The notes beneath the pieces were generated by a model that made no database searches, was not told the DNA's origin, and saw only the letters and a program-made list of their open reading frames with translations. Below, piece after piece: positions 506-14,470 of a stretch of 64,000 bases of DNA. Numbering within the stretch: position 1 is the stretch's first letter; every line of letters starts with the position of its first letter. Location: positions 1,064 to 65,063 of the forward strand of contig JAZKJC010000002.1 of the NCBI GenBank assembly GCA_040384565.1, written 5' to 3'. This DNA is from Patescibacteria group bacterium. GTDB lineage: Bacteria; Patescibacteriota; Saccharimonadia; Saccharimonadales; JAZKJC01. A program made the position numbers and the translations under genes.

Positions 506-602
506 TTTTGCCTCCGGCAAAAGTAGACAGTAGACAGTAGACAGTAGACAGTTTAGCTGCCGCTGCTAACTGTGAGCTGTGAGCTGTATACTGTATACTC
601 AT
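506..602. repeat. Heptamer-repeat intercistronic spacer (rpoA|rplQ): GTAGACA x4, central hairpin 549-572, then CTGTGAG x2 and CTGTATA-type x2
   Basis: Read directly from the sequence. The reverse complement of the right arm (GTATACA) differs from the left unit (GTAGACA) by one base per heptad, giving an imperfect long hairpin. Confidence 0.8.
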
Positions 603-1544
603 TTAGATTTCCAGCTCCGCCATTTTTTCTTTGACTTCGTCTAGAGCTTTGCTGCCAAAGCCCTTAAGTTCGCGTAACTCTCCGTCACTTAGTGCAAATA
701 AGTCCTTTAGAGTGTGAATGTCGTTATTAATAAGTGCGTTAGTTGTACGAGCTGACAAGTTCAGGTCTTCAATAGGAGTCATTAGCTCGGCAGGCTCATC
801 GTTTTCCTTAATATCACCGGCTTCCCCGGACATTGATAGTGGAGCCGAGGCTTCAATACGAGTTTGACCTGCTAATGCAGTGTACTGGTTTACTAATATA
901 GCTGCTGCCTCTTCAAACGCATCTCTAGGCGTGATTGAACCATCTGTGTCGACGCTGATTAAAAGTTTATCCAGGTCCGTCATTTGTCCAACACGGGTGT
1001 TTTCTACCTTGTAACGTACACGCAGAACAGGGCTATAAATAGCATCCAAGGCAACGTGATCGCTTGGTTTTTTAGCAGTACCTTCGTCAATAGTACGGTA
1101 GCCACGGCCTGTTTCTACTACTAAATCGGCGACAAATTTTGCCTTGTCATCATCAATTGTGGCAATAACATGGCTTGGGTTAACTATTTCTACGTCAGCA
1201 TTTGTCTCAATATCTCCTGCTGTTACTACGCCTTTGCCTTGCTTGGATATACGTAATGTCTGTACTTCATCACCAAAAACGCGGAATCGTACTGATTTAA
1301 GATTCATCATAATGTCAACGGCGTCTTCTTTGACGCCCTTTACGGTGGTAAATTCATGAGTAACGCCCTCAATTTTGAAAGAGGTAATAGCCGCGCCAGA
1401 AATAGACGAAAGTAATACCCTCCGCAAGGAGTTACCCAGTGTCATACCATAACCTGAGTGCAATGGCTCAATAGTGAATGTAGCACTGGTGGCACCTTGA
1501 TCGTCGACTCTTACGACTCCTGGTGTGTGAATAATCTTTGACAT
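603..1544 (-). CDS. rpoA: DNA-directed RNA polymerase subunit alpha
   Basis: 313 aa. N-terminal and C-terminal domain pattern (..LRRVLLSS.., C-terminal ..LSARTTNAL..). GGAGG SD upstream. Position between rpsD and rplQ. Confidence 0.95.
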   Translation of the reverse strand: MSKIIHTPGVVRVDDQGATSATFTIEPLHSGYGMTLGNSLRRVLLSSISGAAITSFKIEGVTHEFTTVKGVKEDAVDIMMNLKSVRFRVFGDEVQTLRISKQGKGVVTAGDIETNADVEIVNPSHVIATIDDDKAKFVADLVVETGRGYRTIDEGTAKKPSDHVALDAIYSPVLRVRYKVENTRVGQMTDLDKLLISVDTDGSITPRDAFEEAAAILVNQYTALAGQTRIEASAPLSMSGEAGDIKENDEPAELMTPIEDLNLSARTTNALINNDIHTLKDLFALSDGELRELKGFGSKALDEVKEKMAELEI

Positions 1545-1565
1545 ATATGTTTCGCCTCCTTCAGC

Positions 1566-2186
1566 TTAGCGTGAGTAGTACTCTACTATTAATTGTTCGT
1601 TGATATCGGGTTCTGCTTCTTCGCGAGTAGGCAAGCCAGTAATTGTAACTACCAGCTTCTTTCTGTCCGCTTTCAACCAAGCCGGTAGGCTGGTTGGAGC
1701 CGGACTAATGTCATCCAATCGTTTGAAGTACTCACTCTGTTTGCTATGATCACGAACCACCAGTTCGTCTCCTGCAGATAATCTCATTGATGGTATATCA
1801 ACCCGTCTTCCATTAAGCATAAAATGACCATGGGTAACTAGCTGGCGAGCCGCGCGGCGCGATGGTGCTAAACCTGCCCTGTAAACCGCATTATCGGCAC
1901 GCTGTTCTAGTAGTTGCAGTAACATTTCACCAGATTGGCCGTCTCTTCTGGAAGCCTCTTTCATAAGATTACTAAACTGGCGTTCAAGTAGGCCATAGAG
2001 ACGTTTGACTTTCTGCTTCTCACGCAACTGCAAAGAGTATTGGCTGGCTTTAGCTCTATAGCCACGGCCGGTGTTTTGCTGGCCAGGTGTCGCTGTGCGC
2101 TTAACTAATGCCTTGTGGGCTTTAGGATGGAGAGCATAGCCCTCGCGGCGGCTCATTTTAACAATTGATTGCGTGTCTCGGGCCAT
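1566..2186 (-). CDS. rpsD: 30S ribosomal protein S4
   Basis: MARDTQSIVKMSRREG.. is the typical S4 N-terminus. Operon context. Confidence 0.95.
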   Translation of the reverse strand: MARDTQSIVKMSRREGYALHPKAHKALVKRTATPGQQNTGRGYRAKASQYSLQLREKQKVKRLYGLLERQFSNLMKEASRRDGQSGEMLLQLLEQRADNAVYRAGLAPSRRAARQLVTHGHFMLNGRRVDIPSMRLSAGDELVVRDHSKQSEYFKRLDDISPAPTSLPAWLKADRKKLVVTITGLPTREEAEPDINEQLIVEYYSR

Positions 2187-2328
2187 TATGCGCTCCCTCC
2201 GGTCGCTTCAATTATCAATTTACAATTTTCAATTTTCAATGATGGAACATGCTTCGCATGTGTATTATCGAAGAGAAAAGATATTAATGATACTTGTTCA
2301 ATGTTAGCTGTTATGTAAGGCATAGCGA
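2187..2328. repeat. Intercistronic spacer (rpsK|rpsD) with CAATTTT-type heptamers, hairpin ACATGC-TTC-GCATGT (2247-2261) and a conserved leader box
   Basis: Shares about 60 nt (GCGCTCCCTCCGGTCGCTTCAAT..CAATTT..TTCAATG) with spacers 3249-3401 and 14344-14470. GTCGCT/AGCGAC ends could close the spacer. Confidence 0.75.
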
Positions 2329-12501: not shown

Positions 12502-12503
12502 AA

Positions 12504-13340
12504 TTATTTCCTCTTCGCCGCATGGCGGGATTTAACAATAAACTGATTATTAGCTTTACGGCTGCGTGTTTTATACCCCAATGTCTTCTGGCCCCAAGGC
12601 GTACGTGGATCTTTGCCCATACCATGGCGGCCACCATCACCCCCACCGTGGGGGTGATCTGCCGCATTCATAACCACACCGCGGACGGTTGGGCGGATGC
12701 CTTTGTGACGATTACGTCCGGCCTTACCAATCTTCATGTTCTGGTGCTGCTCATTGCCAATTACGCCAATACTGGCACTGCATTCAACATGTACCATCCG
12801 GACTTCGCCGCTGGGTAGTTTGACCTGCGCGTAATCATTTTCCTTAGCTACCAGTTGCGCGCCAGTGCCGGCTGAACGTACCATCTGAGCACCTTTGCCA
12901 GCTTGCAACTCGATGGCATGAATTATGCTACCAACAGGGATAGATTTGAGTGACATGCGGTTGCCGCTATCAATGGCGGCTTCATCTCCGCTATGAACTT
13001 TTTGGCCTACGACCATGCTGTTTGTAGCCAGAATATAGTGGTATGTATTGGTACTATCCTTGATGCGGGCAATACGGGCACTGCGGTTCGGGTCGTATTC
13101 TATCTGCTCAATAACCGCCTCTGTGCCGGGTGCTAAACGGAAGTTTAATAGTCTGTAGAATTTACGGACGCCGCCGCCGCGGTGTCTTGTAGTAATACGT
13201 CCTTGGTTATTGCGGCCAGAATTCTTTTTCTTAATTACAATGAGGGATTTTAGTGGTTTACGAGTTGTGATTGCAGACAAATCCTGATTTGTCATTCCAC
13301 GTCGGCCAGGAGTTGTCGGATTATAAAGTTTTAGGCTCAT
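12504..13340 (-). CDS. rplB: 50S ribosomal protein L2
   Basis: 278 aa, ..HPHGGGDGG.. is the L2 signature. Confidence 0.96.
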   Translation of the reverse strand: MSLKLYNPTTPGRRGMTNQDLSAITTRKPLKSLIVIKKKNSGRNNQGRITTRHRGGGVRKFYRLLNFRLAPGTEAVIEQIEYDPNRSARIARIKDSTNTYHYILATNSMVVGQKVHSGDEAAIDSGNRMSLKSIPVGSIIHAIELQAGKGAQMVRSAGTGAQLVAKENDYAQVKLPSGEVRMVHVECSASIGVIGNEQHQNMKIGKAGRNRHKGIRPTVRGVVMNAADHPHGGGDGGRHGMGKDPRTPWGQKTLGYKTRSRKANNQFIVKSRHAAKRK

Positions 13341-13681
13341 TTTTTGGCTTCTTTGGATTTAGATTTAGCTGGTTTGGTGTCTTCTTCACTCGCAAATACT
13401 GGTAAACTGTCGCCCTTTTTGAGCGTCACGAATGCTTTCTTCATGTCAGCGCGCTTGCCAAACTTTTGTTTGCCGCCTTTGCGTACAGTACGTTTAACCT
13501 TGCCAGGAATATTAGCAATATTAACGCTAGTAACGGTAACGTCGAACTGGGCCTGAACCGCATTAGTAACGGTCAGTTTGTTAGCGTCGCCAGGAACCTG
13601 AATAACATATACACCTGCGGTTTGGCTCAACCCATAGGCTTTTTCGCTCACTCGCGGCTTGAGTGTCATTGACTTATCCAT
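13337..13681 (-). CDS. rplW: 50S ribosomal protein L23 (Lys-rich C-terminal tail)
   Basis: L23 pattern and position between rplD and rplB. Confidence 0.92.
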   Translation of the reverse strand: MDKSMTLKPRVSEKAYGLSQTAGVYVIQVPGDANKLTVTNAVQAQFDVTVTSVNIANIPGKVKRTVRKGGKQKFGKRADMKKAFVTLKKGDSLPVFASEEDTKPAKSKSKEAKK

Positions 13682-14343
13682 TATTTGACCTCGGCTTTCG
13701 CGGCCTTAATTTTTGGAGTAAGCCAGGCGGTTACAAGTGCAAGGGCATCCTTGGTGATGGTAATATTATCGGCATTCATAACGTCATAAACATTGATATA
13801 TGTGGCTTGTATAAGTTTGATGTTCTGGAGGTTTTTTGTAACACGGACTATATCTTCCGTTTTATCAGCAACAACCAGAAGGGTAGTCTTGTTGGCACCT
13901 ATTTTAGTAAGTAGCCCGACAATTTCGCTTGTCTTAACTGTTTTGAGCGTAATATCTTCTAACACAATAAGCTTGTTTTCTGCGGCGGCAATACTTAGGG
14001 ATTGCCTTATTGCTTGGCGCTTGGCGCTAATATTAAGTTTGTGGCTATAATTTTCCAGCCCGGTAGGTCCAAAGGCAATACCACCACCACGCCAAATAGG
14101 GTTACGAGAAGAACCAAATCGTGCGCGCCCTGTGCCTTTTTGCTTCCACGGTTTGCGTCCACCTCCACTAACTAAACCACGGGTTTTGGTTTTTGCAGCG
14201 CTAGTGCGTCCATTGGCCAAGTAAGCAACGTAGGCAGTTTTGAGCAACTCGTGGTTTTTAGGGACAATACCAAATATTGCCTTATCTAACTTGGCAGGTA
14301 CTGTAGCTTTTGTGCCGGCCTTAGTAAATGTAGCAACCGACAT
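13681..14343 (-). CDS. rplD: 50S ribosomal protein L4
   Basis: ..GGGRKPWKQKGTGRAR.GS.R.P.WRGGG.. is the L4 signature. Confidence 0.95.
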   Translation of the reverse strand: MSVATFTKAGTKATVPAKLDKAIFGIVPKNHELLKTAYVAYLANGRTSAAKTKTRGLVSGGGRKPWKQKGTGRARFGSSRNPIWRGGGIAFGPTGLENYSHKLNISAKRQAIRQSLSIAAAENKLIVLEDITLKTVKTSEIVGLLTKIGANKTTLLVVADKTEDIVRVTKNLQNIKLIQATYINVYDVMNADNITITKDALALVTAWLTPKIKAAKAEVK

Positions 14344-14470
14344 CAGGCGCTCCCTCTGGTCGCTTCAATCATCAATTTACAATTATCAATTTCCAATGGG
14401 GCTACACTAGCTGCATTGGGTATTGATGTTTGATCCTTGAATGAAAATTGAAAATTGAAAATTGAAAATT
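14344..14470. repeat. Spacer (rplC|rplD): conserved leader box plus GAAAATT x4 (14443-14470) abutting the rplC stop
   Basis: Four perfect heptamers. The leader is homologous to those at 2187-2250 and 3249-3310. Confidence 0.85.

Follow-up and report, generated by a model that had tools for sequence, protein, structure and literature searches.

The ribosomal protein superoperon at one end of the 64,000-nucleotide stretch of contig JAZKJC010000002.1 analysed here (the window), together with the rpoB-rpoC operon further along, contains eight spacers of 97-157 nt that are built from tandem heptamers, in most cases arranged as two hairpin arms. Those in the ribosomal protein operon stand at junctions where the genes of related Saccharibacteria overlap or nearly abut, and all eight are spanned by a single short open reading frame (ORF) that begins at the upstream stop codon and ends at the downstream start codon. 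The best account of these features is probably that the spacers are palindromic elements resembling MITEs (transposable elements of the miniature inverted-repeat type), with slippage-prone heptamer arms, and that they would be tolerated because the bridging mini-ORF relays translational coupling from one gene to the next. The initial annotation of this DNA had recorded the heptamer arrays and their arms; the open frame with its placement, and the insertion into normally overlapping junctions, are the decisive facts that it lacked.

Insertions at tight operon junctions

The gap at each junction was measured after placing the 28 proteins of the operon in 72 related loci, with about 31-50 Saccharibacteria represented at each. 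The initial annotation had proposed comparing orthologous spacers in relatives for a retained architecture; most relatives turned out to have tight junctions without any spacer, the medians ranging from -1 to 9 nt (Table 1). These empty sites resemble ...AAGGAGxxxxxTAATGGC..., with the Shine-Dalgarno (SD) sequence inside the upstream gene, and comparison with them shows that the window retains the 3' end of the upstream gene with its internal SD and a stop-proximal ATG. Each of the eight full elements is flanked by genes on one strand, in the ribosomal protein or rpoBC operon, and all have the same orientation.

Heptamer inserts of like build occur in a few other genomes (related loci are given three-digit L numbers): at five junctions in L042, three in L009, and one each in L014 and L037. 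A metagenome operon, L077/L079, carries them at two junctions, and L038 has one 55-nt spacer with an excess of 7-nt periodicity. Neighbour joining on a concatenation of 24 proteins scatters the element-bearing genomes across the tree, and several of them have sisters or clade-mates with empty sites: L001 for the window, L011 for L009, and L002, L003, L007 and L031 for L042. Because the window, L009 and L042 each have an empty-site sister, I do not favour one ancestral insertion common to all three. This comparison of sequences indicates that the spacers are lineage-specific insertions and not conserved regulatory spacers.

The insertions are also related to one another. The L3-L4, S11-S4, L36-S13 and L29-S17 spacers align over their full length with a mean identity of 70% and draw on a common AATTTNC/GAAAATT unit family; the pattern GACYRRARGGAG has four matches against 0.04 expected. 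The suggestion that each spacer has a different heptamer is consequently true only in part, since these four are copies of one element and the S14-S8 unit recurs at L14-L24 (9228-9256), although otherwise the units do differ. The 5' end is conserved as ATG(A)(A/T)TCG or GTCGCTATG, and the 3' end as ...GCGACYGRARGGAG-N5-9-T(A/G)ATG or ...GAAACCGGAGGTTTCNNAATG, whereas termini of the form GTCGC...GCGAC are found in some copies only. Among the 87 loci compared, ...GCGACYGRARGGAG... is confined to element-bearing loci. Elements in L009, L014, L037, L042 and L077/L079 carry these end modules too, and L042 has four related copies.

A metagenome scan with the 3' module GAAACCGGAGGTTTCRYAATG returned 14 loci, of which seven have a common heptamer-less hairpin, three are unrelated, two are duplicates of the L077/L079 operon and two are high-GC loci with heptamer arms; this module alone is therefore not diagnostic. 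The two high-GC loci are metagenome contigs with a GC content of 0.64-0.69 (L087, positions 2900-3073, and L085, about 1790-1842), in which inverted arrays of GCGGTCA/GCAATCA versus GCTGATA are followed by the same GAAACCGGAGGTTTC SD hairpin upstream of a gene that starts MTFSHIDE, which I take from reading it to be MoaC-like.

One open frame through each spacer

Every heptamer spacer in the window (8/8) is spanned by one ORF of 34-53 codons. Counted from the final base of the upstream stop codon, its ATG falls at -3 to +8 nt (as ATGA, TAAATG or TAAAATG). Its own stop codon, preceded by a GGAGG that the element itself carries, finishes 0-9 nt beyond the A of the downstream ATG; four of the eight are TGATG or TAATG overlaps. 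Exactly one sense frame per spacer is free of stops, the other sense frames having one to six, and the antisense frames likewise contain one to six stops each, bar one open antisense frame in S14-S8. In shuffled sequence the probability that the given frame is open is 0.025-0.165 per spacer, with a product of 10^-8.7 (about 2e-9).

Bridging sets these spacers apart from others in the window. At most four of the 28 other same-strand spacers of at least 25 nt are bridged (Fisher p = 1.6e-5), and among spacers of at least 80 nt the comparison is 8/8 with heptamers against 1/11 without. In the relatives, 25 of 37 inserts at tight junctions are bridged versus 11 of 90 at the loose junctions L15-SecY, SecY-IF1 and IF1-L36 (p = 1.4e-9). 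The other heptamer-type elements found in relatives are all bridged, including that at S14-S8 of L009, which was read by eye and starts 16 nt after the stop, and several non-heptameric insert types in relatives are bridged likewise.

The non-heptameric inserts include bridged hairpins at tight junctions in L022 (6703-6811 and 9603-9723) and L046 (8119-8236). One insert family, encoding ...SSQSLNSFQxLRDxKNRRFV..., is present in two genomes and another, with ...GALRGDVP..., in three; longer inserts were also noted in L008, L037 and L046.

It would be natural to ask whether the mini-ORFs specify microproteins with a function, or regulatory peptides of the leader type. Their good start contexts would suit this, as would the annotation of the 39- and 53-residue ORFs by gene callers (the 53-codon L29-S17 ORF was also called in an independent assembly) and the presence of other small, non-repetitive ORFs inserted in the operons of relatives. 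However, the peptides are low-complexity read-outs of the heptamers, and paralogues differ mostly at non-synonymous positions: a hand count over the right arm and module of the S11-S4 and L36-S13 copies, 19 codons in all, gives five changes that are non-synonymous and two that are synonymous. When a profile built from four of the mini-ORF peptides was run against 5.8 billion proteins, it matched only the 53-residue ORF itself, and no mini-ORF has a Pfam match. I consider a peptide function highly improbable, and propose on sequence grounds that the peptide sequence is irrelevant to the role of the frame.

The frame has left a mark on the length of the arrays. Thirteen perfect period-7 runs lie within the ORFs. 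Ten have units that are stop-free in any phase and reach up to 4.4 copies; the other three have a TGA or TAA in the unit, and each of them measures exactly 18 nt (2.6 copies). One added copy on either side of these 18-nt runs would put a stop in frame, so that 2.6 copies is the longest length the frame permits.

Coupling by termination-reinitiation reportedly requires overlaps or very short gaps, to go by the title of one paper. From these arrangements I infer that the mini-ORFs are translated, that ribosomes re-initiate at both of their ends, that the elements are mobile and that slippage is the source of the arrays. In a few scattered lineages of Saccharibacteria, palindromic elements of about 80-160 nt would enter highly expressed operons at junctions whose stop and start codons normally overlap. 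A ribosome that finishes the upstream cistron would re-initiate at the ATG on the ancestral coupled-start site, served by the SD of the upstream gene, and would translate the stop-free path through the element, melting the hairpin as it goes. It would then pass the GGAGG of the element, held in a small local hairpin (UUUUGCC-GGA-GGCAAAA or GAAACC-GGA-GGUUUC), terminate on or shortly after the downstream start (at TGATG or TAATG, or at a stop that finishes 6-9 nt beyond the A of that ATG) and re-initiate there. The arrays would meanwhile grow and shrink by slipped-strand mispairing and be clipped where an extra copy would bring in an in-frame stop. Operons that work by termination-reinitiation would thus tolerate the elements because each carries its own coupling relay. 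Among the roles listed in the initial annotation, translational coupling comes nearest to the evidence, as every full spacer appears to hold an ORF coupled to both neighbours.

Table 1. Heptamer elements and arrays of the window, all on the minus strand. Gaps are median in relatives / window, in nt; z is the folding score of the spacer against dinucleotide shuffles.
Junction or feature	Position	Spacer	Gap	Arrays	Arms and modules	Bridging ORF	z
RpoA-L17	498..602	506-602	1 (1-3) / 97 with L17 start at 505, 82 with the other L17 start	AGTAGAC x4.4, 522-552; 570-587 x2.6; 584-599 x2.3	(GTATACA)2(GCTCACA)2 vs (TGTCTAC)4.4; central GTTAGC/GCTAAAC hairpin; 3' SD hairpin UUUUGCC-GGA-GGCAAAA	34 codons, 602->498	-3.1
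S11-S4	2186..2328	2187-2328	2 / 142	2207-2240	5' end GTCGCTATGC; degenerate left arm; right arm TTGAAAA TTGAAAA TTGTAAA TTGATAA; 3' module GAAGCGACCGGAGGGAGCGCATAATG	45 codons, 2323->2186	+0.17
L36-S13	3248..3401	3249-3401	2 / 153	3269-3302; 3332-3389	paralogue of S11-S4, L3-L4 and L29-S17	48 codons, 3394->3248	-2.75
S14-S8	7819..7932	7829-7932	9 / 104	7872-7898	one 14-nt array GAGCAAAGAGCAAT x2.1, no complementary arm; 3' SD hairpin GAAACC-GGA-GGUUUC	36 codons, 7929->7819	-1.0
L14-L24	9227..9257		-1 in relatives	31-nt heptamer array	S14-S8 unit, in frame with L24; either a 7-residue N-terminal extension or a micro-spacer		
L29-S17	9961..10122	9962-10118	-1 / 157	9982-10012; 10069-10119		53 codons; start ATGA overlaps L29 stop, end TGATG overlaps S17 start	-1.7
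S3-L16	10732..10852	10739-10852	1 / 114	10765-10790 x3.7; 10804-10835 x4.6	GAGTCAT x2.6(+) vs CTCATAT x3.7; 3' module CGCGACTGAAAGGAG	39 codons, 10851->10732	-1.95
L3-L4	14343..14474	14344-14470	-1 / 127	14442-14470 x4.1; 14366-14397	left arm AATTTTC x4.1; right arm GAAATTG ATAATTG TAAATTG ATGATTG; 3' module GAAGCGACCAGAGGGAGCGCCTGATG	43 codons, 14474->14343	-3.5 (-3.8 with 200 shuffles)
rpoB-rpoC	27668..27817	27672-27817		imperfect heptamer arrays		49 codons	+0.1
Heptamer-armed hairpin	55130..55215; downstream of gene 55221-57284				GAGTGAG-type arm vs CCTTTCT x4.6; dG -40		

Arrays, folding and the origin of the elements

Arrays were sought with Tandem Repeats Finder and with a separate period scan, using 20 shuffles as a control. 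The window has 15 period-7 arrays, 12 of them within its first 15 kb, and none of period 5, 6, 8, 9, 10 or 11; the shuffles contain no period-7 array. Within the spacers, the only periods that Tandem Repeats Finder reports are 7, 14 and 18 nt. In non-coding DNA the self-match frequency is 0.315, 0.299 and 0.298 at lags of 7, 14 and 21, versus about 0.27, whereas the autocorrelation of coding DNA has a lag-3 pattern alone. These results bear out the initial annotation on the retention of the 7-nt period and on the repeats, perfect or near-perfect, at every location it gave; within the window, the 7-nt tandem repeats are enriched outside annotated genes. The layout it described, in the mRNA (minus-strand) sense, of a stop codon, an array, a central hairpin, a second array, the SD and a start codon was recovered except at S14-S8, which has no second arm. 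The arrays extend beyond the ribosomal protein operon: they are also found at rpoB-rpoC and in the hairpin at 55130-55215.

Two short heptamer runs in coding sequence, both of fewer than three copies, were seen as well: GCTGTCA x2.7 in the C-terminal tail of L17 (92-110) and GCTTGGC x2.4 in L4 (14012-14028).

The initial annotation had offered RNase III-type processing, insulation of cistrons and mRNA stabilisation as roles, with the diversity of units favouring pairing within a spacer over pairing between spacers. If the hairpins were functional mRNA elements of this kind, for processing, insulation or 3' stabilisation, one would look for folding beyond that of shuffled sequence, and five of the seven ribosomal protein spacers do have z scores of -1.7 to -3.8. 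The other two (S11-S4 and S14-S8), like rpoB-rpoC, fold no better than shuffles. The arms can form a quasi-continuous duplex of about 20 bp, and Correia and ERIC elements have been reported to act in this way (PMC2229807). Spacer 2187-2328 (S11-S4), whose second arm the initial annotation had described as poorly complementary, has a degenerate left arm.

Selection on sense structure should make sense folding at least as strong as antisense folding, and the opposite is seen: the antisense RNA is predicted to be more stable in seven of nine elements, and the sums are -303.7 versus -271.8 kcal/mol, the antisense strand having more G-U pairs in this comparison. The folding data thus give no sign of a selected sense-RNA hairpin. 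Cognate arms do pair more strongly on average than non-cognate arms (-27.4 versus -16.6 kcal/mol), and for RpoA-L17 and S3-L16 the difference in units would enforce pairing within the spacer as suggested. The four AATTTNC-family spacers, however, cross-pair as strongly as they self-pair (the L36-S13 left arm with the L3-L4 right arm reaches -37.7 versus -35.6 kcal/mol for the cognate pair), and the arms of S14-S8 and rpoB-rpoC pair with themselves no more strongly than with other spacers. Since most relatives have no spacer at these junctions, there is no evident conserved need for processing. The spacers match no Rfam family, and any translation of the mini-ORFs would mean that passing ribosomes hold the stems open. 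A functional role for the RNA structure thus appears unlikely.

A second alternative concerns origin. The spacers could have arisen in place by heptamer slippage followed by fold-back or template-switch duplication, in which case they would be neutral and immobile, and the open frame would simply be a condition of survival in an essential operon. A strict period of 7, perfect arrays of up to 4.4 copies and units that vary between elements are consistent with such an origin, and heptanucleotide repeats are the commonest long simple-sequence repeats (LSSRs) in many bacteria, where they are ascribed to polymerase slippage (PMC4679880). However, non-repetitive end modules and central parts are common to four copies in the window, and the same modules recur in phylogenetically scattered genomes, for which local slippage offers no explanation; nor would it account for the single orientation of all copies. 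I regard origin in place as improbable, about on a par with the RNA roles above.

Several observations weigh against mobile elements carrying a coupling relay. There is no unambiguous target-site duplication at the junctions compared, the duplicated bases being just ATG, TGA or TAATG, which function requires anyway, and no transposase of the insertion sequence (IS) or RAYT type was found among 30 window ORFs scanned against Pfam, although a serine recombinase is present; both negatives would equally suit an origin in place. The S3-L16 and S14-S8 junctions are filled in several genomes, and an ancient insertion followed by repeated precise loss may still account for the distribution. Look-ups of clusters and contigs turned up a single identical 2.9-kb Logan contig; close relatives and population variants were not among the results. 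The bridge is not universal: the heptamer element of high-GC L087 (and L085) lacks a full ORF bridge, as does the hairpin at 55130-55215, where the right arm alone is in frame and extends the downstream ORF. Mismatches in the arms were also considered as a form of stop avoidance, and no enrichment was seen: of 78 repairs, those creating a stop number seven in the ORF frame versus four and six in the other frames. I therefore dropped the general claim that the frame has shaped the arms, and retain the effect on array length alone. Taken with these points, MITE-like elements bridged by relay ORFs remain the reading that I think probable.

Genomic setting and comparison with known systems

The minus strand carries every gene from about 31.5 kb down to position 47, in the mRNA order rpoB, rpoC; S12, S7, EF-G, EF-Tu; a sugar transferase; and the S10-to-L17 ribosomal superoperon. 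The best matches of the S8 protein are only Saccharibacteria and Patescibacteria metagenome-assembled genomes, with a highest identity of 74%. The S5-L15 interval has no ORF at the place that L30 occupies in many bacteria, and IF1 is the immediate neighbour 3' of SecY. An Rfam scan of the window at gathering score has one tRNA (53676-53756) as its sole match, and hence no ribosomal protein autoregulatory leader; a tRNA scan found nothing within the heptamer spacers, and a terminator and promoter scan found no sense-strand terminators inside the elements. A promoter-like TTGAAA-17 nt-GATAAT sequence with 10/12 matches lies in the S11-S4 right arm facing S4 (2239-2211, minus strand), and weaker matches are present in the L36-S13 element; these may be due to chance in AT-rich repeats and are hence uninterpretable.

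Other additions to these operons were also observed, all on the minus strand. The 223-nt spacer downstream of S10 (15567-15789) folds with a minimum free energy of -66.7 kcal/mol (z -5.07, equalled by 0 of 200 shuffles) and has a AGCCAUCCCC/GGGGAUGGCU closing stem, with neither an Rfam match nor a bridging ORF. A 122-residue ORF of unassigned function and without a Pfam match (12133-12501) separates L2 from S19, with a 2-nt gap to L2 and a 4-nt overlap with the S19 start, and an insert of at least 60 nt is found between L2 and S19 in seven relatives too. A 97-residue ORF, also without a Pfam match, lies between S10 and L3 (15273-15566). S10 (15790-16326) has an N-terminal extension of about 80 residues, and L5 (8202-8906) a C-terminal extension of about 50 residues past its Pfam domains. 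The str operon has extra genes at 19211-19890 and 22051-23326: between EF-G and EF-Tu, a PIN-domain protein and an 85-residue partner resemble a toxin-antitoxin pair, and three ORFs without assigned function (105, 53 and 116 residues), all joined by overlaps, are interspersed among S12, S7 and EF-G. 

Beyond these operons, the large serine recombinase (Resolvase, Recombinase and zinc-ribbon domains; 52153-53756 region) shares bases with the end of an oppositely oriented tRNA-Leu gene, which may mark the edge of an integrated element. A 2038-residue protein with fn3, CARDB and metallopeptidase-like domains (57777-63893, minus strand) is encoded in a stretch where G+C rises to 0.52-0.55 versus about 0.44 elsewhere.

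The closest parallel to the heptamer elements is with mycobacterial interspersed repetitive units (MIRUs). Supply et al. are said to describe MIRUs as GC-rich, mycobacterial, 46-101-bp direct tandem units of the variable-number tandem repeat kind; as no such direct tandem unit is found here, the elements are not filed as MIRUs. MIRUs have been described as mobile repeats whose insertion sites are start codons and whose internal ORF is coupled at -4 nt, and ribosomes can unwind hairpins and then hand over to a downstream start (PMC12548453, summarising Supply et al. 1997). Like them, the elements described here lie between operon genes in the orientation of those genes and contain a small ORF whose two ends overlap or abut the stop and start codons on either side (8/8 in both respects); both are regarded as mobile, and as tolerated because the coupling would keep the downstream genes expressed. 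The comparison is by description, not by sequence, and there are differences: a single palindromic unit per spacer, arms of 7-nt sub-repeats, a GGAGG of its own and a Saccharibacterium host. By analogy, then, the elements embody what is functionally the MIRU principle.

MITEs with open frames, namely RPE, ERIC/IRU, YPAL and the 107-bp Correia element, are similar in their size of about 100-200 bp, multiple copies, filled and empty sites among relatives, and contiguous ORFs co-translated with host genes, as is predicted here; their transcripts fold into long stem-loops, and five of the eight elements here fold with z at or below -1.7 and three do not (PMC2229807). They differ in that they fuse in frame into host proteins or lie in untranslated regions, whereas the ORF here is free-standing, with predicted coupling to an essential gene at either end, the arms consist of tandem heptamers, and terminal inverted repeats and target-site duplications are not clearly defined. 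The attC sites of integrons are imperfect palindromes between cistrons whose stem-loops impede ribosomes, and their short ORFs have been proposed to relieve this barrier and restore downstream expression by termination-reinitiation (PMC8876359); unlike the present elements, attC are recombination sites with core sequences and an integrase, nothing of which was seen here. REP and REPIN sequences with their RAYT transposases (PMC3116915, PMC3733652) are also short palindromic hairpins, dispersed through a genome and situated between genes of one transcript, but at 20-40 nt, with a GTAG or CGTC head, they are extragenic and untranslated, and no RAYT was seen in the 64 kb.

The arrays themselves invite a different comparison. 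Cyanobacterial short tandemly repeated repetitive (STRR) sequences are heptanucleotide tandem repeats. Heptamer LSSRs such as TAACTGA (PMC4679880) and the operon-spacer arrays of Nostoc (PMC2408588) are likewise tandem 7-nt units in intergenic regions, operons included; they are scattered across phyla, and the corresponding spacers of relatives are shorter and repeat-free. Those repeats, however, are direct arrays of one genome-wide unit, generally not inverted and not reported as bridging ORFs, whereas this window has at least six distinct, unrelated heptamer units within 64 kb in place of a few units everywhere, set in two roughly complementary arms inside an open frame. My literature search found neither this combination nor anything comparable for Patescibacteria. 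What appears to be new is the combination itself: inverted, element-specific heptamer arms, conserved ends with a built-in SD, and a free-standing, doubly coupled ORF in the essential ribosomal operons of the Candidate Phyla Radiation.

A further and more doubtful possibility follows from the length of the unit. As 7 is not a multiple of 3, the gain or loss of one heptamer displaces the mini-ORF stop: by prediction it would then lie 13 to more than 60 nt away from the start of the next gene, or the mini-ORF might become fused to that gene. The arrays could in that case be reversible frame toggles that retune L4, L16 or L17 relative to the upstream neighbour, carried on a horizontally spreading coupling-relay cassette. 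I give this little credence; if true, it would amount to contingency-locus behaviour inside essential ribosomal operons.

For annotation, the 'intergenic' spacers in Saccharibacteria ribosomal operons would be tiny hypothetical genes, and elements of this kind may be recognised from sequence by a signature in which a single frame is open, begins with an ATG at the upstream stop and closes at the downstream ATG, with arrays clipped to fit that frame. More generally, they would provide a natural answer to how structured, selfish or slippage-born sequence can reside in an operon of stop/start overlaps without breaking its expression. A relay ORF with its own Shine-Dalgarno and a stop on the next start would extend the MIRU principle to the Candidate Phyla Radiation, with a different repeat architecture.

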